This document shows, one piece after another, positions 1-62,813 of a stretch of DNA of 64,000 nt. The notes under the pieces are model-generated. The model did no database searches and was not told the origin of the DNA. It saw only the letters and a program-made list of their open reading frames with translations. The stretch spans positions 1,061,443 through 1,125,442 of the forward strand of contig OY970181.1 of NCBI GenBank assembly GCA_963708045.1. The letters run 5' to 3'. The translations under genes were made by a program, and so were the position numbers. This DNA is from an uncultured bacterium (GTDB lineage: Bacteria > Patescibacteriota > Patescibacteriia > CAIQCM01). Position 1 is the first letter of the stretch. Each line of letters begins with the position of its first letter.

Positions 1-1621
1 ACGAAGCGGCGCTTGACATTGAATTGGCAAAAATAAGCGGCGACCAAACAAACCCCGGCGTGCCGCGATACCAATTGGGCGGATTTTTATCCAATCCTTC
101 AAAAACCTTTGCCCATTTGTCGGCGACGCCAAAAATCATCGCGTACGGAAGATAGTCGGAAAAAATATTTTCTTTTTCCTGCCACTTGGCGCGATATTTT
201 TCCGCTTTGCCGATAAATTCCTTAAAGCCGAGCATTTTCATATAGGCCACGTTTCCAGCCACGGTTCTGGAAGGCATAAAGTAACCAAAAATCGCAATCA
301 AAATCGCCGGCGCAAAAAGCGCGACATAACCGGTTGGACCAAAATTTAAATCTGTCCACACCTTAAGAAGAACAAACGCGACAATGGCATAAGACGCCGC
401 CGCACCAAAATACCCTCCCCGGATCCGCGCAGGCGACCCCTTATACCAGCCACGCGCAACCACCGCGTCCGCCATCGCCAACTTGATTGACGGCAGGGCT
501 GTATAAAATTTGTTTTCTAGATCGCTAAGCTTAACCCGCTCCCCGACCTTACCAACGAAAATGCCGTCCAGAATTTTAATCTCAAAATCTTTTAGCGTTT
601 GATCGGAGGCGAATTCTTTTTTAAGCTCAAAAATATAACTATGCGATGAGCCAAAAATATTTTTCTTTTCCGTTTCCTCAATCACCAAACAACCTTTTAC
701 AGCTAAGTGCACGATGGTCGCCGACACTTCAGACATTCCAACTTGTCCTTTTTCCAAAACCGAAAGCTCGGCCGGCGCCGCGCCTTCGTATGGCTCGTAT
801 TCCACAACCATTGTCTTTGTCATCAAGGGATCGCGACCATATTTCCACCAGCGCCAAAAAAGAAAAGCAAAAATGATAAACGGCCACAAAATTATCCAGT
901 TGTCGCCAAGCCAAGCCCAAATATTTTCAAAAACCGTCGGCGGCTGAACAATTCCCTTTGGCCAACCAACGACAATCGTGAGGACGGTTGTTTGATAAGG
1001 AATTACTTTTAATGTACTCCTACTGCTTTTAAAGGTTACGCCACTCGCCGACTTGGAAATATCACAGATTTCCGATGCATTCTGACCAAGTTCGGTAAAA
1101 CATTTTGTTTTAATACTATCCGCACCAACCGAGGCAGGAAGCGTTACGCTTGCGCTCACCGCGTCTGGCCAACCAAGGTCACCCCAGGGCTCGGAAGATA
1201 CGTTCCAATAAAGCTCGTCGTGGTCAAGAAGAAACAAAAGCGCCCGCGACACGTTATACGAAATCACATACTCTTGTTTGCCGGTTATAAGTTTATCAGC
1301 ATCCCCGATTTGAATTCGCAGACGATCGCCGTTTCGCGAAAGCGCGTACGTAAGCGGCGCGCCGTTTTTATCGGTAACCGAATTAACCGTTATTTTTGTT
1401 GAAAAAGGATTGCCGGTATCGGTTTTGTATTTAACGGGAAGATCGCGAAAAATTCCGTGCTTCATTACGTCAAAATCAACCACCGCCGTTTCTGTAATAT
1501 GAAACGTCCCGTCGGCATTAATTTTAATCTGCTGATCCAATGAATTAAAAGTAGAAGCCAGCGCTGGTGTAGCCGCCGCGATCATTAATGCCGCGATTGC
1601 GATAATAAAACTTTTCCGCAT
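1..1621 (-). CDS. DUF2207-family membrane protein (partial; 3' end runs off left edge, so absent from ORF track)
   Basis: Hand translation of minus strand from ATG at ~1621 gives MRKSFIIAIAALMIAAATPALAS (signal peptide). A long extracytoplasmic region follows, then TM helices and a KWAKVFEGLDKNPPNWY-type C-terminal motif recalled for DUF2207. Confidence 0.5.
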   Translation of the reverse strand, partial: MRKSFIIAIAALMIAAATPALASTFNSLDQQIKINADGTFHITETAVVDFDVMKHGIFRDLPVKYKTDTGNPFSTKITVNSVTDKNGAPLTYALSRNGDRLRIQIGDADKLITGKQEYVISYNVSRALLFLLDHDELYWNVSSEPWGDLGWPDAVSASVTLPASVGADSIKTKCFTELGQNASEICDISKSASGVTFKSSRSTLKVIPYQTTVLTIVVGWPKGIVQPPTVFENIWAWLGDNWIILWPFIIFAFLFWRWWKYGRDPLMTKTMVVEYEPYEGAAPAELSVLEKGQVGMSEVSATIVHLAVKGCLVIEETEKKNIFGSSHSYIFELKKEFASDQTLKDFEIKILDGIFVGKVGERVKLSDLENKFYTALPSIKLAMADAVVARGWYKGSPARIRGGYFGAAASYAIVAFVLLKVWTDLNFGPTGYVALFAPAILIAIFGYFMPSRTVAGNVAYMKMLGFKEFIGKAEKYRAKWQEKENIFSDYLPYAMIFGVADKWAKVFEGLDKNPPNWYRGTPGFVWSPLIFANSMSSAAS

Positions 1622-4083: not shown

Positions 4084-5685
4084 TTAAGGACTAACTTGCT
4101 CCGCTTCTGGCGGAACGGTAACCGGCCGAACCGGCAAATCGGCGCTGATAATTTCCGGCTTGGTAACATTACTTAAGTCCAGTGGATATGATTCGGTTTT
4201 CCAATAGCCAGGGTGAGTAACTGTCACATAATATGTATTTTTCCCGACCAAAAAATAATATCGCCCGCGGCGGTCAGAAATTTGCGTTTCCACAAGTTTG
4301 TTATAAGGCAAAGAAAACAAGCGGACAACGGCGTGGGCGATCGGCTTGGATGTAACTTCGTCCGAAACCACGCCCCAGCGGCCGCGATTTTTTACTTTTG
4401 AAAGCCGCTTTAAAAATAAATAAAAAACCAGTTGTAACCCGAGAATCACCCCCATATAAATTCCCGGTTTAGCGGCAAAAGAAAAAGCCGCCAAACAAAA
4501 ACTTGAAAGCGCGACGATGTTCCCAATTTTGTTCTTTAAATATTTTTTAACCAGAACGACATCGCCGACTGCTTCCGCCGCCGCGTCAACGGGAATTGCC
4601 GGGCTAACCGCCGTTTGTTCGCTCGCGCCAAATTCCGAACCAAAATACAGCGCGCCAAAGTCAGGATCGCTTTCGGCGCCCGCCATATTTTTTGACGGAA
4701 AAGAAAACCCCGGCTTGGTAACTTCTAGGCGATATTTTCCTTGTGGCGCCAAAAACATAAAACGACCGCTCGTGTCAGTGACTTTTGTCGCAATAACGCG
4801 ATTGGTCGTGGCGTCAACTAAACGCACGATTGCGAGATCAACCGGCAATCTGGTTCCAGAATTAAACACCACGCCCCAAGCCGCTTGGCGGCGACGGCGG
4901 CGAAAAAATAACGCCGGCTGAGTAAAAAACAGATACAAATAAAATCCGTATTGCGCCGTTGGCACTGAGCTCGCAGCAACGGCGACAACCGCAACCGTGC
5001 TCACTGGCGCCGCCGCTACTTCGGCCGTTGTTTCCACAATCGGATTATCTAAAACAACGCGCTTCGTAAGAATAATGGCGTTTACCGCGGGCATAACCGC
5101 CGTACCAACGGAAACCGCCGCCTCTTGTGTCACTCTTTTTTGCGTCGCGGCGGCGACCGCAGGCGGCGGATCAGCAAAACCCGACGGTGTTTCTATTTGC
5201 GCGCCAGCTTTTTGTCCGGAAAAATCGGTTTCTAAATAAAAACTAACGCGATAATTTAGACACGGCGACGCGTTACAGGCTGTGCCGTCAGAATTTAATG
5301 ATTCGTAAAGATAGTCCGCACCAAACGGTCCGGGGTTTTTGGGAACGTTAGAAAGATACACTTCGTCCTGCGGTGAATCGGTAAAACCGGCGGACGTTAA
5401 ATAATGACTGCCCGTTCCACCAAGAACCAAACCACCATCACCTCTAACGCCATCGGTCGGATACCCACCTGTGTCGTTTACGGAATATTCCAAAGCCTTA
5501 TGGATTGTATCCAAATTTGCAATCCGCGCCACGTCGCGCGACTTAGCACGGACGCTTTCATAAGAAACCGTAGCAATCGTGCTCATCAGTCCAATGATGC
5601 TGATGACGGTTAAAAGCTCAACCAAGGTAAAACCGCGATGATGCTTAGGTTGTAAGTTGTTGGTTGTAAGTTGTTGGGAAAACAT
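4084..5685 (-). CDS. type IV pilin-like protein (prepilin N-terminal methylation motif) with internal TM helices and carboxypeptidase-regulatory-like beta domains
   Basis: N-terminus ...RGFTLVELLTVISIIGLMSTIATVSY is a class III signal/pseudopilin motif. Two GRFMFLAPQGKYRLEVTKPGFSFPS / GRYYFLVGKNTYYVTVTHPGYWKTESYP segments resemble CarboxypepD_reg folds. Confidence 0.65.
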   Translation of the reverse strand: MFSQQLTTNNLQPKHHRGFTLVELLTVISIIGLMSTIATVSYESVRAKSRDVARIANLDTIHKALEYSVNDTGGYPTDGVRGDGGLVLGGTGSHYLTSAGFTDSPQDEVYLSNVPKNPGPFGADYLYESLNSDGTACNASPCLNYRVSFYLETDFSGQKAGAQIETPSGFADPPPAVAAATQKRVTQEAAVSVGTAVMPAVNAIILTKRVVLDNPIVETTAEVAAAPVSTVAVVAVAASSVPTAQYGFYLYLFFTQPALFFRRRRRQAAWGVVFNSGTRLPVDLAIVRLVDATTNRVIATKVTDTSGRFMFLAPQGKYRLEVTKPGFSFPSKNMAGAESDPDFGALYFGSEFGASEQTAVSPAIPVDAAAEAVGDVVLVKKYLKNKIGNIVALSSFCLAAFSFAAKPGIYMGVILGLQLVFYLFLKRLSKVKNRGRWGVVSDEVTSKPIAHAVVRLFSLPYNKLVETQISDRRGRYYFLVGKNTYYVTVTHPGYWKTESYPLDLSNVTKPEIISADLPVRPVTVPPEAEQVSP

Positions 5686-5737
5686 TAATAAATTGTACTA
5701 CAAATATATCCTATTCCCTAGTCCATAATTTTTAACA

Positions 5738-5778
5738 ACAAAAACTGGCCACGCCTAGGCGAAACCAGTTTTTGTTAT
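5738..5778. terminator. bidirectional intrinsic terminator hairpin
   Basis: aaaactgg-ccacgcctaggcgaa-ccagtttt hairpin flanked by A-run and T-run, between two minus-strand genes. Confidence 0.45.
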
Positions 5779-5793
5779 CGTGTCAAAATAAAC

Positions 5794-6300
5794 TCAGGAA
5801 ACCAGAACCGGTCCAAGCGCCATTACTTCTTCAGCGTCTTTTTTAGTTATAACTTTTTTATCAGCCAATTTAACCGCCAGCAGATCAACTTTATCGTTGG
5901 TATTCATAAAACCATCGCGCATCTCTGACCGAAGCGAGCCGATCTCGGTTCTAACCGAAGAAATCTCAGAATGGAGTTCGTTACGAAGCCCGGATATCTC
6001 CGACTTAAGCTCAGTGCGTACAGCCGATATCTCCGACTTAAGTTCAAGACGAACCGAGGACAGTCTAGCATCGACCCCGGCAATATCATTCTTAAGCTCA
6101 GTGCGCAAGATATCAACCTTTTGATTAACATCAACAATATCTTTACCCACCTGATCAAATCCAGCCTTAACGATCGTCACCAAATCATCAATAGCCGCGG
6201 CATTTTCTTTAATGGCGACAGAGTTTTCTTTGATAGCCAAAGCGCTTTCTTTAACTAGAGCGGCCAATTCGTCAATTTTTTCGTTTGTTCTCTTTTCCAT
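5794..6300 (-). CDS. coiled-coil protein with tandem 11-residue repeats
   Basis: 168 aa. Repeats RLELKSEISAVRTELKSEISGLRNELHSEISSVRTEIGSLRSEM are mirrored by ~33-bp tandem DNA repeats at ~5985-6100. Confidence 0.5.
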   Translation of the reverse strand: MEKRTNEKIDELAALVKESALAIKENSVAIKENAAAIDDLVTIVKAGFDQVGKDIVDVNQKVDILRTELKNDIAGVDARLSSVRLELKSEISAVRTELKSEISGLRNELHSEISSVRTEIGSLRSEMRDGFMNTNDKVDLLAVKLADKKVITKKDAEEVMALGPVLVS

Positions 6301-6322
6301 ACAAAAACCATTCTACACCTTT

Positions 6323-7324
6323 TTAAGTCCTGTCAAAAGCCTCGTTGTTTAATATCATATTTTGCAAACTTTGTGTGTCCCCGTGGCTCAAAAGTCCCAG
6401 ATATGACTTGATTGTCGCTTTGCTCGGATGCTCGGCAATGCGCTTAAACATTCGCCGTTCAGTCGTCTTTCGCAAAACGCGATGATCGGAGAAATGCGTC
6501 CACCCCAAAAAATCAACGCCTGAGCCAAAGGTCTTGAGAATTATCTTGTCCGGATGCATCGTTAGCCGTAAATTGTTTTGGAGATAATCGGATACAATCG
6601 GCAAAATCGCCAGCAACTCATTTTTATACGGTGACAAGAAAACAAAATCATCAGCATAGCGAATGTAATGTGAAAATCGTAAATACTGTTTCACAAATAA
6701 ATCCAGTTCATTCAAATACACATTGGCAAAAAGTTGCGAAGTCAAATTTCCGAGCGGTATACCAACACCCGATCGTCCGGAATTAAAACTACCAACAATA
6801 TTAACGAGGAGCAAACAAATATCGTCATCAGGTATTCGTTCAAAAAGAAGTTTTAATAATATCGTCTGATTGACGCTCGCAAAGAACTTGCGAATGTCGC
6901 ACTTCAAAACCCAAACTGTGCGCGTATGATTTTTGCCAACTTTCAAAGCAAGATCGCGAAACCGGTTCAAGGCCGCGTGCGTGCCTTTGTCTATTCGGCA
7001 AGAAAAGGAATCCGCTACGAAAATTCTATCAAAGAATGGGTATAGTAAACGGTGTACGGCATGGTGCAAAAGGCGGTCGCGCACCGAGGCTTTATGAATC
7101 TGCCGCGGCTTGGGGTCGGAAATGCGAAAGGCGCGGTAGCCGCCATGACGATATTTATGCGTAGTCAAATCTTTGTGAAGTTGTAAAATATTATCCATCA
7201 GGTTATCGGAGAACTCTTGCACATCGGTCTTGCCTCGTTTTCCGGCGGCGAATTCTTCCCAAGCGGCACATAAATTTTCAAGTGATGTAACTTCATCAAA
7301 GCTATGGATCAAAATCTTTTTCAT
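6323..7324 (-). CDS. diversity-generating retroelement (DGR) reverse transcriptase
   Basis: 333 aa RT with YADDFV catalytic motif. DGR-specific motif 4 IPLGNLTSQLFANVYLNELD (I/LGxxxSQ replaces the QG of group II/retron RTs). A TR/VR pair lies immediately adjacent. Confidence 0.85.
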   Translation of the reverse strand: MKKILIHSFDEVTSLENLCAAWEEFAAGKRGKTDVQEFSDNLMDNILQLHKDLTTHKYRHGGYRAFRISDPKPRQIHKASVRDRLLHHAVHRLLYPFFDRIFVADSFSCRIDKGTHAALNRFRDLALKVGKNHTRTVWVLKCDIRKFFASVNQTILLKLLFERIPDDDICLLLVNIVGSFNSGRSGVGIPLGNLTSQLFANVYLNELDLFVKQYLRFSHYIRYADDFVFLSPYKNELLAILPIVSDYLQNNLRLTMHPDKIILKTFGSGVDFLGWTHFSDHRVLRKTTERRMFKRIAEHPSKATIKSYLGLLSHGDTQSLQNMILNNEAFDRT

Positions 7325-7333
7325 AATTCTAGT

Positions 7334-7697
7334 ATGTTACCCCCCCCCGACGGATTTCAAGGAAATTCCAATTTTGCGACGAGCGATAGACGCATACAAA
7401 CTTTGGCACAGCTTTCTTAATGCCATGCCACGAATGACAAAGTACACTTTGGGATCGCGAATTGACGGCCTTTTTGGCGACTTGATTGAAAACTTATCAG
7501 CTGCAGGATATGCGATAAAAGAAAACAAGATATCATTTCTCAATTCCGCAAGCGTAAACCTTGATCTAGTCAAATTATTTCTGCGTCTTGCTTGGGAAAT
7601 AAAAGCTCTTGACCATAAAAAATACGCCGCAGTCTCGGAACCAATAAACGACATTGGGCGAATGCTTGGTGGTTGGCGAAAACACCTTATTACTTAA
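7334..7697 (+). CDS. avd: Avd-like four-helix-bundle accessory protein (start uncertain; ATG at 7334 is out of frame unless the C9 tract at 7340-7348 is one C shorter)
   Basis: Region ...FKEIPILRRAIDAYKLWHSFLNAMPRMTKYTLGSRIDGLFGDLIENLSAAGYA...FLNSASVNLDLVKLFLRLAWEIKALDHKKYAAVSEPINDIGRMLGGWRK matches the four-helix-bundle (bAvd / 23S IVS protein) family pattern. Alternative in-frame start TTG ~7374. Confidence 0.55.
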
Positions 7698-7735
7698 CAC
7701 CCTTGAACGTTGTCAAGGGTGTTAACTGAAAAGAG

Positions 7736-7873
7736 TTGCTGACGGCGAGGAAGAACCAGTTCGCGTTCCACTGATTGCTGGGGTCGTCGTAGTTGAGGTT
7801 GAGGTTCCGTTCGCGATCGTTCTCGTTCAAGTACGCAACGTGGAGATGATCACCGAAGCGAGCGACCGAGCCG
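7736..7873 (-). repeat. DGR template repeat (TR), 138 bp
   Basis: Near-identical to VR at 8210-8347. All 11 mismatches are plus-strand T (= minus-strand A) in this copy versus C (10) or A (1) in VR. Noncoding copy, rich in AAC codons when read in target frame. Confidence 0.8.
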
Positions 7874-8127
7874 TCTGAATATGTTCAAAACCGTCCGCAC
7901 CACCACCCCTTGAATTCTCTTGGGGTTGAATTTTATACCGAGCCCTTGCTCGCTGATTTTGAACACCAAGTATTTTCAGTTTCGCACGACGATGATGCTC
8001 TAATCAGCGGCTTGCCGCTAGATTATTCTGACCCGTCGTTCGCGCGCAGATTCGGCCGCCTGAAACCTTAGTCGCAAGCAGATTTGCCTAATCCAATTAT
8101 AATTATACACCAAAAATAAAAATCACC

Positions 8128-8156
8128 CCGCACAACACGAATGTTGTGCGGGGCCG
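8128..8156 (-). terminator. hairpin/terminator downstream of DGR target gene
   Basis: ccccgcacaac-acgaat-gttgtgcgggg stem-loop followed on minus strand by TGATTTTTATTTTT, ~50 nt after target stop. Confidence 0.4.
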
Positions 8157-8205
8157 AATGATCCAAGGGTACCGACCAAGCACCAAGTACCAAGAACCCA
8201 AGTGG

Positions 8206-8865
8206 TTACTTGCTGACGGCGAGGAAGAACCAGTTCGCGTCCCACTGAATGCTGGGGTCGCCGTAGCTGAGGCTGAGGTCCCGCTCGCGATCGTCCCCGC
8301 TCAAGTACGCAACGTGGAGATGACCACCGAAGCGAGCGACCGAGCCGAGGGCAGCAATCAGATGCCTCCTTTGCTCATCTGGATACTTACTCGCAAAAGC
8401 GAGTAGTTCCTCGTAGAGCGCAGGGCGCAAACCAACTGCGTCCATAGCTTCAAGAATTTTCTTGGTCGTCATTTGACGGTCAATCCTGAAGTATTGGAAT
8501 ACTACGTCGCCAGCCGTCCGAACAATGCTCTTACATCGCTCAATTGGCTCGAACCGAGCCTTGGCGTAATCGGGGTTCACCCAATCAAACACCTTACTGA
8601 GTTCTTCGAACGACGGCTGAAGGTATTTCACGAGGGCTGTGAATACTTCAACTACCTTTTCGTTTACAGCCGCGAGTGCAGCCAGTGCCGCCGTAACCAT
8701 AACTTTGCCAAGAGCTGGTTTCTCGCCCACCGCCACAAATAGTTCTTCGGTCATACCTCCACCATTAAGCGAGGCCAGAAATGGACCCAATCCGCCGAGT
8801 TCTGTTTTGAATAGGTTTGCCATTTTAGCTACCCTACCCTTTCTTAACCGTCCCGGTACATTCAA
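8206..8865 (-). CDS. DGR variable (target) protein; VR encodes the C-terminal 46 residues
   Basis: 219 aa (alternative start MANLFK at ~8823 has a GGGTAGG-like RBS). C-terminus ...GGHLHVAYLSGDDRERDLSLSYGDPSIQWDANWFFLAVSK. Variable positions correspond to AAC/GAC/AAT codons of TR. Confidence 0.75.
   Translation of the reverse strand: MNVPGRLRKGRVAKMANLFKTELGGLGPFLASLNGGGMTEELFVAVGEKPALGKVMVTAALAALAAVNEKVVEVFTALVKYLQPSFEELSKVFDWVNPDYAKARFEPIERCKSIVRTAGDVVFQYFRIDRQMTTKKILEAMDAVGLRPALYEELLAFASKYPDEQRRHLIAALGSVARFGGHLHVAYLSGDDRERDLSLSYGDPSIQWDANWFFLAVSK
8210..8347 (-). repeat. DGR variable repeat (VR)
   Basis: 138 bp matching TR, lying at the 3' end of the target ORF (stop at 8206-8208). Substitutions N to S/D/G/I relative to the TR-encoded peptide. 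Confidence 0.8.
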
Positions 8866-9029
8866 ACAAACGCACCACGCGCTGGTTTAAATTTCCCTGA
8901 TTTAAAAGGACGCACTTAATTTCATCATTTTAGAGACAAAAACAAATGCGTACTTTTTAAGCTCTCAACAAATGAAGATACCACAAAACAACGATTTTGT
9001 CAAGATTTCGCTTTGATAAATGTATATAT

Positions 9030-9057
9030 TTGACAAAAATGTATAGTTTTGTATAAT
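9030..9057 (+). promoter_or_regulatory. sigma70-like promoter TTGACA-N16-TATAAT
   Basis: tTTGACAaaaatgtatagttttgTATAATttagttaaatATG. The -10 element ends ~10 nt before the ATG of the HTH-GHKL gene, so the mRNA is near-leaderless. Confidence 0.5.
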
Positions 9058-9067
9058 TTAGTTAAAT

Positions 9068-9805
9068 ATGAGTAGATTAGACAAAAAACTATATACTATT
9101 AGCGAGGCGGCCAAATATCTTGGCGTTTCAATGGTCACACTCCGTCGCTGGCACAAAGACGAGTCTTTTAAGGCGTCTTTTGTTTCCCCTGGGGGTCACC
9201 GATATTATTCCTTGGCCGATCTTGAAAAAAAGACTCGCGGTATTTTTCAAATTGCCCGCGAATGGGCCGCTTCGGAAACGCCATTTGAACAAGCAAGCGA
9301 ATTTTACGCATCAACGAGCGACCGTTTTAAAACAAGACAAGGAAGAATGGACACGGAAATGAACGCCGCGCCAAAACCGGAAAAAAATATTTCTTTGATA
9401 TCCGCGTCCGTTGGAGAAATCGGAAATAATTCTTTTGACCACAACCTCGGTAATTGGCCAGATATTCCCGGAGTATTTTTTGCTTATGATCTTGGTAAAC
9501 GAGTCATCGTCCTTGCCGACCGAGGTGTCGGAGTCTTGGAAACATTAAGACGGATTAGACCCGGATTAAAAGATCACAACAGTGCGCTACTTGCCGCATT
9601 TACGGAGATACTTACCGCTCGCGCGCCGGAACATCGCGGCAACGGATTAAAATTCGTTAAAGAAGCACTAACGATTGCCGGAGCAAATTTATCTTTTCAA
9701 TCCGGCAATGCTATTGCCGAAATAAAAGGATCAAAACCCGAGTTAATAATTAAAAACGCGGACTCGTTCATTCGCGGCTCTCTCGCATTAATTGAATATC
9801 AATAA
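9068..9805 (+). CDS. MerR-type HTH fused to GHKL (anti-sigma-factor-like Ser kinase/ATPase) domain
   Basis: N-terminus YTISEAAKYLGVSMVTLRRWHKD is a MerR-like HTH. C-terminal half carries N-box EIGNNSFDHN, G1 ADRGVGV and G2 HRGNGLKF. Paralogous to the 62159-62671 protein. Confidence 0.7.
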   Translation: MSRLDKKLYTISEAAKYLGVSMVTLRRWHKDESFKASFVSPGGHRYYSLADLEKKTRGIFQIAREWAASETPFEQASEFYASTSDRFKTRQGRMDTEMNAAPKPEKNISLISASVGEIGNNSFDHNLGNWPDIPGVFFAYDLGKRVIVLADRGVGVLETLRRIRPGLKDHNSALLAAFTEILTARAPEHRGNGLKFVKEALTIAGANLSFQSGNAIAEIKGSKPELIIKNADSFIRGSLALIEYQ

Positions 9806-10097
9806 TATGATTATTGAAATAAAAAAATTTGGCACTGTGCTTACCTCTCGCCAATCAGGCAAAGAGGCCTATTCGGCTTTTTTGCCAATCTTAACAACAA
9901 CCAAAAAAAACGAAGAAATCATCGTTGATTTCGCTGGCGTTAGTGTTTTTTCCCCATCATGGGGCGACGAATTTTTAACGCCACTCCAAACGACTTTTGG
10001 AAAATACTTGACGCTAAAAAATACAGACAATCCTTCGGTTGCGCTAACAATTTTAACTTTGGAAAAAATCAACGAAGAAAAATTTAAAATCGTTTAA
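9792..10097 (+). CDS. DUF4325 (STAS-like) domain protein, partner of the GHKL protein
   Basis: 101 aa. FGTVLTSRQSGKEAY ... IVDFAGVSVFSPSWGDEFLTPL matches the DUF4325 pattern (DF.GV...SSF.DEF). Overlaps the upstream gene by 14 nt. Paralog at 61804-62082. Confidence 0.7.
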   Translation: MNINNMIIEIKKFGTVLTSRQSGKEAYSAFLPILTTTKKNEEIIVDFAGVSVFSPSWGDEFLTPLQTTFGKYLTLKNTDNPSVALTILTLEKINEEKFKIV

Positions 10098-10179
10098 TCG
10101 CGGACACAATCTAGTTTACGGTTCCGTAGATTGGATGTGAGCAAGTCCAACCCAAGTACAAACTACAACACAACCAAAG

Positions 10180-10252
10180 ATCTCAATGTCTCAAGCAAAC
10201 TCCAAGATTCCTCGCCTTAGACAAAACGACCAGACAGGCTCGGAATGACGCC
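10180..10252. repeat. intergenic repeat, Y-module copy
   Basis: agattcctcgccttagacaaaacgaccagacaggctcggaatgacgcc is similar to the Y module at 62941-63003 and, in reverse complement, to 11169-11231. Confidence 0.45.
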
Positions 10253-10275
10253 GTGGTAAAAGTTATTGATAATGT

Positions 10276-11103
10276 TTATTTCTGGCACACGGGACACCAA
10301 AAAGTGCCGCGGCTGGCGAGTTTGGTTTTTTTAATGACTCCCCCGTCGCGACGCAAACACGGCTCGCCTTCGCGGCCGTAAACTTTTAAATTTTTAACAT
10401 TGGTTCCCGCTACACCGCGCGCATCAACATAAGCATCGGCCGAAGTGCCGCGATTTTTGATGGATTCAGAAAGAACTTTTCTTATCCCCTTCCACAATTC
10501 TTTTTGCTCAGAAGGCGCTAGTTTTCCAGCCGGACGGTCGGGACGAATGCGCGCGAAGTAGAGCGCTTCGGCGGCATAAATATTTCCAATACCAGCGACG
10601 ACCTTTGGGTCCATAAGCAGTTGTTTTATTTTAACGCGCGGCCTTTTGTCCAAACGCGCCTGAAGCGCCGCGACGTCAAAATCCGCATACAGTGGTTCGG
10701 GGCCGAATTTTTGCGATTCAAGATAATCGGCGAGCTCGGCTGCGGTAAATAATTTTAAAAAACCAAAACGACGATAATCTTCCCACATTATTTGCTGGCC
10801 GCCCGTGAGATGAAAAATTACAAAAGTATGTTTGGCTGGTGGTTCATTTTTATCTTTTATAAGTACGCGCCCGGTCATTTTAAGGTGAATCACAAGTGCG
10901 TGATCGCCCGCAAGATCAATCATTAATAATTTGGCACGCCGACGCACCGCAACAATTTTTTTGCCGACGGTGGCGTTTATTAAAACACCGGCAGATACAT
11001 TCAGCCGCTTGGTTGATAAAACTTCGGTCGCAACAATTTTTTTACCGCGTACCACACTTTCAAGCTGACGGCGGATTGTTTCTACTTCTGGCAACTCTGG
11101 CAT
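10276..11103 (-). CDS. mutM: formamidopyrimidine-DNA glycosylase
   Basis: N-terminal MPELPEVETIRRQL (catalytic Pro2/Glu3), H2TH region, C-terminal zinc finger CPVCQK. Confidence 0.9.
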   Translation of the reverse strand: MPELPEVETIRRQLESVVRGKKIVATEVLSTKRLNVSAGVLINATVGKKIVAVRRRAKLLMIDLAGDHALVIHLKMTGRVLIKDKNEPPAKHTFVIFHLTGGQQIMWEDYRRFGFLKLFTAAELADYLESQKFGPEPLYADFDVAALQARLDKRPRVKIKQLLMDPKVVAGIGNIYAAEALYFARIRPDRPAGKLAPSEQKELWKGIRKVLSESIKNRGTSADAYVDARGVAGTNVKNLKVYGREGEPCLRRDGGVIKKTKLASRGTFWCPVCQK

Positions 11104-62734: not shown

Positions 62735-62813
62735 TGGCGGGTGCGATGGGATTTGAACCCACGATCTTCTCCGTGACAGGGAGACGCGTTGAGCCGGGCT
62801 ACGCTACGCACCC
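62735..62813 (-). tRNA. tRNA-Asp (anticodon GTC)
   Basis: Hand-folded cloverleaf: acceptor GGGTGCG/CGCACCC, D-stem GCGT/ACGC, anticodon stem TCTCC/GGAGA with loop CTGTCAC, T-stem GTGGG/CCCAT with loop TTCAAAT, discriminator G, encoded CCA. Confidence 0.85.

Follow-up and report, generated by a model that had tools for sequence, protein, structure and literature searches.

Gene content and order of the locus

In the 64,000-nucleotide stretch of DNA analysed here (the window), positions 6323-8865 hold a target gene, a TR, an avd gene in reversed orientation and a reverse transcriptase (RT) gene, in that order. A first-pass annotation of the same sequence had called this region a complete diversity-generating retroelement (DGR), and each part expected of one was located: an RT, an Avd, a TR, and a target whose C-terminus is encoded by the VR. 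The parts had been named correctly, but order and strand needed revision: avd lies between TR and RT and is read from the + strand, whereas RT, TR and target all have the other orientation. This layout matches architecture B3, TR-(avd)-RT, which is typical of CPR DGRs (Wu et al., 2018, PMC5758913), with avd reversed, the target upstream and a CPR host. Both the B3 order and the reversed orientation of avd are seen in 67 of 69 related loci, and the architecture is kept in L001, L002, L004 and many further loci. The homologues bear names such as Patescibacteria, Uhrbacteria, Magasanikbacteria and similar, and CPR/Patescibacteria DGRs correspond to DGR clade 2 (Roux et al., 2021, PMC8144416). Within the 64 kb window, no second target and no second RT or Avd was found. 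The sequence almost certainly represents a DGR of the Patescibacteria (CPR) lineage with adenine mutagenesis of its target, and very probably an intact one. It is a DGR type already common in ultra-small Patescibacteria.

The RT gene (6323..7324, - strand) encodes 333 aa. Its ORF, read from 7324 to 6323, contains IPLGNLTSQLFANVYLNELD and YADDFV; motif 4 reads IPLGNLTSQ, which fits the pattern [ILV]GxxxSQ, and YADD is also present. In Pfam the product matches RVT_1 at 66.7 bits. Among solved structures, the nearest is that of the Bordetella phage BPP-1 enzyme, bRT (8ub7, E 1.8e-43), which is far closer than the next match, a group II intron-type RT (E 1.4e-17), and closer than retron RTs, in agreement with the DGR type first proposed. 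The Arg74 of bRT is conserved and its Ile181 is replaced by Leu. The RT had been placed within 1 kb of the repeat pair, and the TR is in fact 412 nt from the RT start.

The avd accessory gene (7374..7697, + strand) encodes 107 aa from a TTG codon, with AAGGAA at 7359-7364 ahead of this start at 7374. The label "Avd-like" stands, as the product matches Pfam bAvd (PF22296) at 54 bits, above the cut-off of 40. Its match to NCBIfam DivGenRetAVD, at 76.7 bits, is just short of the cut-off of 80.

The target (variable protein) gene occupies 8206..8823 on the - strand. The ORF had been given as 219 aa, a length that it does reach from a TTG codon (8865..8206), but a start at ATG 8823, yielding 205 aa, is more probable. 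The recorded protein length is 205 aa, and the N-terminus that begins at ATG 8823 is common to homologues.

The target is predicted to carry a C-type-lectin-like domain

In the target, neither a known domain nor a TM segment or signal peptide is recognised. Pfam, NCBIfam and PADLOC gave no matches to it, and an HMM sequence search of its family profile against the PDB returned nothing relevant. Its AlphaFold model (pLDDT 86) matches C-type-lectin/FGE folds only, though weakly, and the earlier description of the target as atypical and not CLec-like is not upheld. From this model we predict a helical N-terminus followed by a C-type-lectin-like domain at about residues 57-205, in which the VR lies, with weak scores. 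Because the fold-match scores are weak, the protein may represent a divergent CLec sub-type. At 205 aa it is very small, little more than a CLec-like domain preceded by a short helical stretch. The family to which it belongs has 84 members and no Pfam family, and minimal CLec-like variable protein of DGRs would now be a usable annotation for it.

TR and VR differ only at adenines

The TR (7736..7873, - strand) and the VR (8210..8347, - strand) are each 138 nt long and 474 nt apart, with 11 mismatches between them. The VR is contained in an ORF, as had been stated, where it makes up the final 46 codons of the target gene (160-205 in the 205-aa ORF); the end of the copy lies 1 nt ahead of the last sense codon of ORF 8865..8206. 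The TR had been described as noncoding. A 46-aa ORF is present there, but it merely echoes the reading frame of the VR. Within the 64 kb window, a 27-mer taken from the repeat's 3' end is found in TR and VR only.

All 11 mismatches fall at T on the + strand of the 7736-7873 copy, which is A in the target sense, and span 7850..7767. As the TR contains 32 adenines in 138 nt, the hypergeometric probability that every difference would fall on A is 2.2e-8. The 106 non-A positions are identical between the copies. Retabulation of the mismatches (11/11 at TR adenines, 0/106 elsewhere) thus reproduced the pattern first noticed, and the TR and VR translations quoted with it proved correct on recomputation. 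The substitutions in this VR are ten A>G and one A>T. Ten of the 11 are non-synonymous, the exception being a silent GAA>GAG, and codon position 1 or 2 is hit in ten, mostly in AAC/AAT codons. The TR 3' end holds a 19-nt A-free stretch (7759..7741), and this GC-rich 19-mer stands near the 3' end of both copies, which are identical to the end of the repeat; the IMH/IMH* sequence difference is absent at the TR and VR 3' ends.

The same specificity is seen across the clade. In ten loci with this architecture, 170 of 175 TR/VR differences are at A, and in 45 loci the count is 481 of 492, with A>T and A>C included. Two related MAGs (L013 and L018) have identical TRs and VRs that differ at 21 positions, all 21 of them A-templated. 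The bias toward A>G (10/11 here, a 63% share clade-wide) is stronger than misincorporation at random would give; selection or a bias of the enzyme may lie behind it.

It is barely worth entertaining that the repeats arose by simple segmental duplication, with a general A>G (T>C) mutational bias behind their differences, and that an unrelated retron, group II intron or defence RT lies nearby by chance: the changes are mostly transitions and the best NCBIfam match of the RT is a group II intron RT/maturase model (135 bits, far under its cut-off of 300), but the strand- and base-specific pattern (P = 2e-8) recurs in 45 independent loci, the RT is 26 orders of magnitude nearer bRT by E-value and carries the DGR-specific GxxxSQ motif, Avd adjoins, and searches of the region returned no RNA family of introns or retrons.

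A probable terminator and a pentamer array follow the target gene

Five CTTGG pentamers at 7-8 nt spacing (8163..8202, - strand) lie between the target stop codon and an intrinsic terminator. In the 75 nt after the VR, the density of CTTGG across ten loci is 0.055 per nt, compared with 0.0025 per nt elsewhere. The array follows the VR and not the TR, and its motif differs among subclades (CTCAG, CYTGG, CTTTG). The putative terminator of the target gene (8115..8154, - strand) consists of a 13-pair GC-rich stem followed by UGAUUUUUAUUUUU, at a position that is conserved in relatives. GC-rich inverted repeats after the VR are present in 34% of DGRs (Wu et al., 2018, PMC5758913); the one described here seems to be a terminator because it lies 55 nt downstream of the VR and has a U-run.

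A structured RNA is predicted around the TR

Directly after the terminator lies TATAAT (8102..8107, - strand), the probable -10 box of a dedicated TR-RNA promoter, and a second TATAAT is found at 8101-8096. Among 42 aligned relatives, conservation of T2 and A3 of this box reaches at least 90% and T7 does not vary (a TAnnnT signature). A promoter scan gave TATAAT no score because no good -35 is present. Downstream, we have high confidence in the secondary structure of a clade-wide RNA of about 415 nt that comprises a 230-nt leader, the TR, its 3' flank, and a hairpin with a U-run. That this RNA is a stand-alone transcript ending at the hairpin 3' of the TR is a less secure proposal, which we favour on balance.

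The leader folds into two predicted domains. Domain 1 (8001..8095, - strand) contains helices H0, H1 (a UNCG/UAAG-type tetraloop hairpin) and H2; in helices 2-5 of this domain, 94.8-98.4% of cells are paired and nearly every pair covaries. Domain 2 (7881..7966, - strand) ends 7 nt ahead of the TR and is built on a 12-bp helix, H3 (7966-7955 with 7892-7881), which encloses hairpins H4 and H5. Ten of the 12 pairs of H3 show compensatory changes, and 97.4% of its cells are paired. Between the domains, the segment 7967..7981 (- strand; AACUGAAAAUACUUG), with its nearly invariant ACUUGG, forms the 5' strand of a long-range helix, and columns T137-T144 of the alignment, on this strand, are invariant or at least 90% conserved. 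Its partner in the RNAalifold consensus of the 42-sequence alignment (A5) is 7724..7738 (- strand; CAACUCUUUUCAGUU), that is, the last 3 nt of the TR and 12 nt of 3' flank. Of the 13 pairs in this helix, eight are changed on both sides. Its share of paired cells, 87.9%, is the lowest among the long helices. A connection of the leader's ACUUGG with the post-VR CTTGG array found no support, as the array motif shifts between subclades and the leader motif is constant.

Directly 3' of the TR flank is a 13-bp stem-loop (7694..7725, - strand), which overlaps the avd stop codon (7695-7697) and is followed by a U-rich stretch. A stem-loop stands at the same place in all relatives, with differing sequences and mostly with GUUUUGUUUU after it; five of the seven pairs of this helix (helix 12) are changed on both sides. 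It is probably the 3' end of the TR RNA, an Avd-binding stem-loop, or both. Because the U-run here (GUAAUAAGGUGUUUUCG) is weaker than in most relatives, there may be read-through into antisense avd and on to RT.

Of 50 RT-anchored loci with 1 kb or more of upstream sequence, 48 contain the leader. Its alignment yields 40 pairs in RNAalifold, 34 of them with compensatory changes. The full-length alignment yields 69 pairs, in which 91.5% of cells are paired, compared with 74% after shuffling and 39-49% when the partners are slid. The covariation score, 0.593 versus 0.246, was reached by none of 500 shuffles. Compensatory changes affect 55 of the 69 pairs, for which selection on RNA (or single-stranded) structure is the sole explanation. 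MFE folding of the whole of 7325-7900 was uninformative (z = -0.4). Rfam at gathering threshold reported only a tRNA (62738-62813) in the whole window, and with E up to 10 it gave chance-level matches only in 7300-8300, with no RT-1..19 motif among them.

It is very improbable that the 230-nt region lies outside the functional DGR RNA and is conserved as a DNA promoter or operator, as a gene for a small protein or as the target transcript's 3' UTR. A stop-free frame does run through most of the leader in many relatives, and an ORF caller placed 40-aa ORFs there in L002. The open frame is inconsistent between sequences, however, all codon positions take substitutions in equal measure, and the length is no multiple of 3 in 430 of 497 pairwise indels; on these grounds we rejected a coding leader. 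In addition to the compensatory changes, the terminator of the target gene stands upstream of the region, and the region accompanies this RT clade across different types of TR and target. We therefore retain the reading of the leader as a structured part of the TR RNA.

The cassette could also be a fossil, a once-active DGR that is now dead, with its TR/VR differences frozen. Just 11 of the 32 TR adenines differ, ten of the 11 changes are A>G, and one relative (L014) looks decayed, with only RT residues 125-245 aligning and non-A mismatches in its VR. We nevertheless consider a dead element improbable. The three ORFs are intact and the catalytic motifs present; drift would have eroded the identity of the 106 non-A positions; the leader RNA, the hairpin and the repeat tract described below are all in canonical form; and the VRs of close relatives have diversified independently. 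An intact DGR remains the preferred reading.

A candidate phase-variable repeat separates avd and RT

The 49-nt spacer between the divergent start codons of avd and RT contains a homopolymer tract, C9 on the + strand and G9 in the RT sense (7340..7348), within the series TTGAAA, 6 nt, G9, TAACAT. This is the only G/C run of at least 8 nt in the window. Across loci, 63 such runs occur in the avd-RT spacer versus one in 417 kb elsewhere. G6-G14 is present in the spacer of 69 of 78 loci, and four of the other nine have (GT)n, (TC)n or (GA)n. Two contigs, L001 with a G9 tract and L002 with G11, otherwise show 2 differences in 3300 nt. It is non-coding, and in the RT frame a TAA comes after it. A placement of the poly-C inside a longer avd ORF (155 aa, from TTG 7230) was discarded, as an upstream in-frame start is found in 25 of 70 loci, about the chance level.

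Repeats are known to drive promoter phase variation elsewhere, as with poly-C in Bordetella fim, poly-G in Neisseria porA/opc and (TA)n in Haemophilus hif (also PMC1891110). Like these promoters, the spacer has a G/C homopolymer of 8-11 nt between divergent genes and near -35/-10-like hexamers, and its tract length varies between near-identical genomes; it is a candidate slipped-strand switch. We give about even chances to the proposal that the tract is a phase-variable expression switch for RT and/or Avd.

Alternatively, the tract could be a fixed structural or binding element, such as a spacer that needs a certain composition, whose length differences are assembly or sequencing noise; this we judge rather unlikely. 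Homopolymers are error-prone in sequencing, and the flanks lack a clean, conserved -35/-10 pair. Against this reading, the tract recurs in sequences that many projects assembled with many assemblers, hardly occurs in 417 kb of other sequence, and differs by 2 nt between two otherwise near-identical contigs. Dinucleotide repeats occupy the same spot in four lineages, which points to selection for repeat instability and not for a G-specific structure. Slippage remains the reading that we favour, under which a hypermutable G/C tract would switch or tune RT and avd expression by slipped-strand mispairing.

A model for diversification at this locus

Taken as one explanation, a DGR with a leader RNA very probably accounts for the locus, the spacer repeat switch being its less certain part. 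The target gene would terminate at its own terminator (8154-8115), and TATAAT (8107-8102), just downstream, would start a separate non-coding RNA of about 415 nt, the hairpin and U-run of which (7725-7680) would overlap the end of convergent avd. Leader positions 7981-7967 would pair with 7738-7724, the last three TR nucleotides and 3' flank, in a 13-bp helix. As this long-range helix joins the leader to the TR end and 3' flank, the TR would form a closed loop whose 5' end lies right beside helix H3 and whose 3' end is kept next to conserved nucleotides of the leader. On the model of the Bordetella phage RNP, RT-Avd may bind the TR RNA, with cis-priming near the TR 3' end; we suggest only tentatively that the 5' leader supplies the priming nucleotide. 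cDNA synthesis would misincorporate opposite adenines and stop at the helix by the TR 5' end. The cDNA could then replace the VR by homology, anchored by the A-free GC-rich 3' segment, and so recode mainly AAC/AAT codons of a predicted ligand-binding face.

Extended by analogy to B3 DGRs at large, the model becomes speculative, and we think it doubtful that all of it will hold: a rearranged RNA in which the 5' 230-nt domain replaces the roles of the BPP-1 accessory RNA Sp and ACUUGG aids cis-priming, together with phase-variable hypermutation machinery. If true, the protein-binding, priming and stop elements of Sp are supplied 5' of the TR in a separate RNA of about 415 nt, and the conserved ACUUGG beside the long-range helix presents the TR 3' end for cis-priming. 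The slippery G/C (or dinucleotide) tract would then turn RT and/or Avd expression on and off, and phase-variable RT/Avd would make targeted hypermutation a stochastic, heritable on/off trait.

As a DGR alone, the locus adds one member to a clade catalogued in thousands and has little importance; its value is as a way into that clade, in the most DGR-dense group of cellular organisms, the CPR. The reversed avd leaves no space for a 3' spacer RNA like the one by which cDNA synthesis is primed and controlled in BPP-1, the sole mechanistically understood DGR, and the covariation-supported RNA model offers a testable answer for where these functions may reside. The RNA family has at least 48 members, could enter Rfam and could help to find TRs. 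The repeat tract suggests a route for the control of DGR activity, about which very little is known for any DGR.

Comparison with known DGRs

By the searches available to us, the structured RNA around the TR and the spacer repeat tract, both clade-wide, looked new. CPR DGRs were reportedly first surveyed by Paul et al. in 2017. In the accessible CPR DGR literature, we found no description of a structured leader RNA, a long-range helix, a spacer tract or post-VR pentamers, and no report of a repeat tract of this kind in any DGR was found in the accessible literature. The locus shares with CPR DGRs its basic anatomy, host group, small target, C-terminal VR and AAC-rich TR, and small targets without known domains have already been reported for this group. 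The fold of the CPR VR classes UVR1-6 was left open (Wu et al., 2018, PMC5758913), whereas the target here is predicted to be CLec-like. It differs from known DGR variable proteins of C-type-lectin fold in that it has no HMM-detectable sequence similarity against the PDB.

The BPP-1 DGR (mtd-avd-TR-brt) provides the closest mechanistic comparison. The two RTs are homologous over 290 residues, with Arg74 kept, and both systems have an Avd partner, adenine-specific mutagenesis, a target of CLec fold (here predicted with weak scores) and a C-terminal VR. They also share a duplex of TR-flanking sequences (predicted here) and a stem-loop just 3' of the TR. Among 278 Avd-containing DGRs, 207 have a predicted upstream-downstream duplex (mean 13 bp) and a stem-loop 3' of the TR (Handa et al., 2024, bioRxiv 10.1101/2023.10.23.563531). 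BPP-1 has its accessory RNA, Sp (about 140 nt, Rfam RT-10 motif), on the 3' side of the TR, where it is co-transcribed with avd and brt. At our locus, by contrast, the RT-10 motif is not matched, the TR-RT interval is filled by avd in antisense orientation, and the 3' flank is only about 55 nt. Unlike BPP-1, the locus instead has a 230-nt structured domain 5' of the TR, behind its own putative -10 box.

The cassette and its relatives

The cassette in the window is a real, complete diversity-generating retroelement (DGR), and most likely an active one, as judged from its sequence and that of its relatives. The two 138-nt copies at 7736-7873 and 8210-8347 form the sole long direct repeat in 5000-11000. 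Compared base by base, the template repeat (TR) and the variable repeat (VR) differ at 11 positions. At all 11 the TR copy (7736-7873) reads T on the + strand, hence A when read in the direction of the target open-reading frame (ORF), and our recomputed count (11/11) thus bears out the first-pass annotation, which had claimed that every difference is an adenine in the noncoding copy. Adenines account for 32 of the 138 TR nucleotides; P for 11 random differences all falling on them is 2.2e-8, and the non-A positions are identical between the repeats without exception (106/106). The changes from TR to VR are ten A>G and one A>T, and ten alter the target codon while one is silent (GAA>GAG). As also annotated, the VR lies within an ORF (8865..8206), running to 1 nt short of its last sense codon, and the TR and VR translations quoted there were correct. 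Within the repeat there is no IMH/IMH* difference between TR and VR; in both, the last 19 nt ahead of AGCAA are GC-rich and A-free.

The reverse transcriptase (RT) gene (7324..6323) encodes 333 aa matching Pfam RVT_1. Its nearest solved structure by far is the Bordetella phage DGR RT (8ub7; E 1.8e-43, residues 9-299), and the runners-up, at ~1e-17, are group II intron-type RTs, which their depositors named retron-type or group II. NCBIfam holds no DGR RT model, and the best match there is a group II intron RT/maturase model, far under its cut-off. The gap between 8ub7 and the runners-up places the protein nearer to DGR RTs than to those of group II introns or retrons. LGNLTSQ, the DGR-specific motif, and YADD are both present; relative to bRT, the RT of Bordetella phage BPP-1, the equivalent of Arg74 is conserved and Ile181 is replaced by Leu. 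The + strand gene for the accessory protein Avd extends from TTG 7374 to 7697 and is preceded by AAGGAA. Its product is above the Pfam bAvd threshold and scores 76.7 against the NCBIfam DGR Avd model, for which the cut-off is 80. The earlier description of a complete DGR with RT, Avd-like protein, TR and target therefore stands, with a single correction: avd is encoded on the opposite strand.

Related loci share this layout. On the contigs with the nearest target homologues (L001/L002 and L004), the order is target, TR, reversed avd and RT, and the 138-nt TR/VR pairs have 18 and 14 differences, respectively, all at TR adenines. Target-family members are encoded at 33 loci of species-representative genomes, all from Patescibacteria lineages, some of which carry a wrong 'Gammaproteobacteria' label from automated submission; every one of these loci with an RT within 4 kb has the same architecture. 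Scanning metagenome contigs with an RT profile gave at least 593 relatives, 80 of which were retained. Of the 69 loci that were long enough, 67 have a reversed avd gene placed between TR and RT. Pooled TR/VR differences fall on TR adenines in 170 of 175 cases (10 loci) and 481 of 492 cases (45 loci). Two related MAGs (loci L013 and L018, ~95% identical locally) have identical TRs and 21 VR differences, all of them A-templated, which is evidence of active elements in this clade.

Across the 45 loci the TR-to-VR spectrum comprises 301 A>G (63%), 101 A>T (21%) and 79 A>C (16%), beside 10/11 A>G in the window (7767-7850). The A>G skew could reflect either an enzyme bias or selection on the AAC -> GAC/AGC/GGC outcomes. 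One further relative, L014:4335-5808, is an apparently decaying DGR, with only RT residues 125-245 aligned, poly-G reduced to G6, TR/VR homology cut to 97 nt and 2 of 14 mismatches at non-adenines.

The target protein

The probable target start is ATG 8823, which yields a protein of 205 aa, as in the public protein collection; the N-terminus, MANLFK, is common to the closest homologues. Pfam, NCBIfam and PADLOC gave no match to it. Its family has 84 members, all uncharacterised and almost all from Patescibacteria MAGs and from groundwater or soil metagenomes. They share a conserved core (GLRPALYEELLAF..KYPDEQRK.PIVALGS), after which comes a hypervariable tail ending in RFLAVRK. The first-pass annotation rated the element highly for an atypical variable protein with no obvious CLec or FGE fold. 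That reason does not hold. The B3 architecture is defined as TR-(avd)-RT (Wu et al. 2018, PMC5758913), and a DGR clade restricted to Patescibacteria (CPR) has targets that typically are without a transmembrane or other recognisable domain, with uncharacterised VR domains predicted to be new C-Lec variants (Roux et al. 2021, PMC8144416). On this definition and description the cassette is a typical CPR DGR, and the traits called atypical are the known norm (Wu et al. 2018; Roux et al. 2021). The target is best read as a minimal, divergent variable protein of probable C-type-lectin fold and not as a new fold.

Target-family genes also occur in tandem arrays that lack RT and avd genes within 4 kb, at L016:4001-6892 (5 copies), L030 (3), L024, L027 and L005. 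A DGR located elsewhere in the genome may target these copies from a distance, or they may be non-diversified paralogues.

Five CTTGG pentamers (8202..8163, minus strand), spaced by 7-8 nt, lie after the target stop codon and before the terminator of the gene. CTTGG is ~22-fold enriched at this place (10 loci), and other subclades have arrays of CTCAG, CYTGG or CTTTG instead. Because no such array follows the TR, the pentamers might mark the VR as the recipient.

Flanking genes

The window holds no second VR, target paralogue, RT or Avd. Cellular genes for a pilin-like protein, an ABC ATPase, Fpg/MutM and phosphoglycerate mutase flank the cassette. The flanking genes of relatives differ from these, so the cassette occupies different chromosomal places.

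Beside the target, on the opposite strand, two + strand genes at 9068-10097 overlap by 14 nt behind a strong sigma-70-like promoter (9030-9057). The first encodes 245 aa with an N-terminal MerR/HTH_17 domain and a weak PADLOC mad1 match confined to the HTH, and the second, of 101 aa, a DUF4325 (STAS-like) protein. Together the two could act in regulation or defence as a small pair. Next to the RT gene on its downstream side, 5794-6300 encodes a 168-aa coiled-coil protein with imperfect 33-nt (11-aa) repeats, LKSEISxVRTE (direct repeats 5989-6105), for which the Pfam matches are low-score coiled-coil only. The 533-aa product of 4084-5685 has an N-terminal methylation motif like that of type IV pilins; SdrD_B and CarboxypepD_reg domains and hydrophobic segments come after it. 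The 5' end of its gene contains a perfect 14-nt tandem duplication (GGTTGTAAGTTGTT x2, 5648-5675).

A hypervariable repeat tract between avd and RT

As a DGR, the cassette joins a well-described group. Its interest rests on what appear to be two novel, clade-wide features, a TR RNA with a 5' domain and a hypervariable repeat tract.

The tract is a homopolymer at 7340-7348, C9 on the + strand and G9 in the RT sense, within the 49-nt spacer that separates the start codons of the divergent avd and RT genes. No other G/C homopolymer of at least 8 nt exists in the 64 kb window, and across all loci there are 63 G/C runs of this size in the spacer versus 1 in 417 kb elsewhere. Of 78 loci, 69 have the tract, at lengths from G6 to G14 (mode 9-10), and four of the nine loci without it have (GT)7, (TC)n or (GA)n at the same spot. 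Its length varies between near-identical elements: between L001 and L002, from samples ERZ27245409 and JGI 3300031711, there are 2 mismatches in 3300 nt besides G9 versus G11, and other close pairs differ by one G. A coding role was rejected, the tract not being within any conserved reading frame.

The tract looks like a contingency locus, in which slipped-strand changes in length would switch or tune expression of RT, avd or both. We propose this role for it with about even confidence. In the window, TTGAAA and TAACAT flank the tract with a 15-nt spacer, which becomes 16-17 nt with G10-11; clade-wide, the flanks are too variable to fix a promoter. Our search of the full-text literature on DGRs with homopolymers or phase variation found no report of such a tract.

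A predicted structured RNA around the TR

The question of how the TR is expressed with avd antisense to it led us to this predicted RNA. The intrinsic terminator of the target gene (8154-8125 plus U-run) is followed directly 3' by TATAAT, in which the T, A and final T reach at least 90% conservation or are invariant among 42 relatives. This putative -10 box of the TR RNA is doubled in tandem in the window (8096-8107, TATAATTATAAT) and single in relatives. The ~230 nt of non-coding sequence after TATAAT are conserved among relatives with RTs just 52-64% identical. An nhmmer profile of this leader detects it at 48 of the 50 RT-anchored loci whose upstream sequence extends for 1 kb or more, immediately 5' of the TR and on the same strand as the RT. 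As coding sequence the leader was rejected: substitutions fall equally on all three codon positions, sequences do not agree on the open frame, and most indels are not multiples of three. No Rfam family matches the leader/TR region.

RNAalifold predicted 40 pairs from 42 non-redundant leaders, 34 of them with compensatory changes. Extending the alignment through the TR and its 3' flank independently added two elements. One is a 13-pair long-range helix between leader positions 7981-7967 (AACUGAAAAUACUUG) and 7738-7724, the latter strand comprising the last 3 nt of the TR and the 3' flank; the other is a hairpin, after which most sequences have GUUUUGUUUU. Over the 69 pairs, 91.5% of cells hold a standard pair, versus 74.4% after shuffling and 39-49% with partners slid. 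Changes on both sides occur in 55 of 69 pairs (shuffled, 41.4), and the covariation score is 0.593 (shuffled, 0.246), a value reached in 0 of 500 shuffles. The long-range helix has 8 of 13 pairs changed on both sides and is 87.9% paired.

These covariations support a clade-wide TR RNA with a putative 5' accessory domain, of which we found no description. It would be a separate transcript converging on avd, because the hairpin overlaps the avd stop codon (7695-7697). The predicted RNA starts near 8095 and ends near 7680 on the minus strand, apart from the target mRNA, whose end is expected near 8115. The invariant ACUUGG beside the TR 3' end is a candidate primer source.

A stem-loop just 3' of the TR, bound by Avd in BPP-1, and a 'cPRT stop' duplex between upstream and downstream sequence (mean 13 bp) have been predicted in 207 of 278 Avd-containing DGRs, CPR included (Handa et al. 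2024, bioRxiv 10.1101/2023.10.23.563531). That analysis took in only 40 nt upstream of the TR and so would have missed the 230-nt leader. The upstream duplex strand in the window is ~95 nt before the TR, beyond a domain formed by leader helices H3-H5. Whereas in BPP-1 the accessory RNA functions lie 3' of the TR, in the B3 DGRs considered here they may have shifted to its 5' side.
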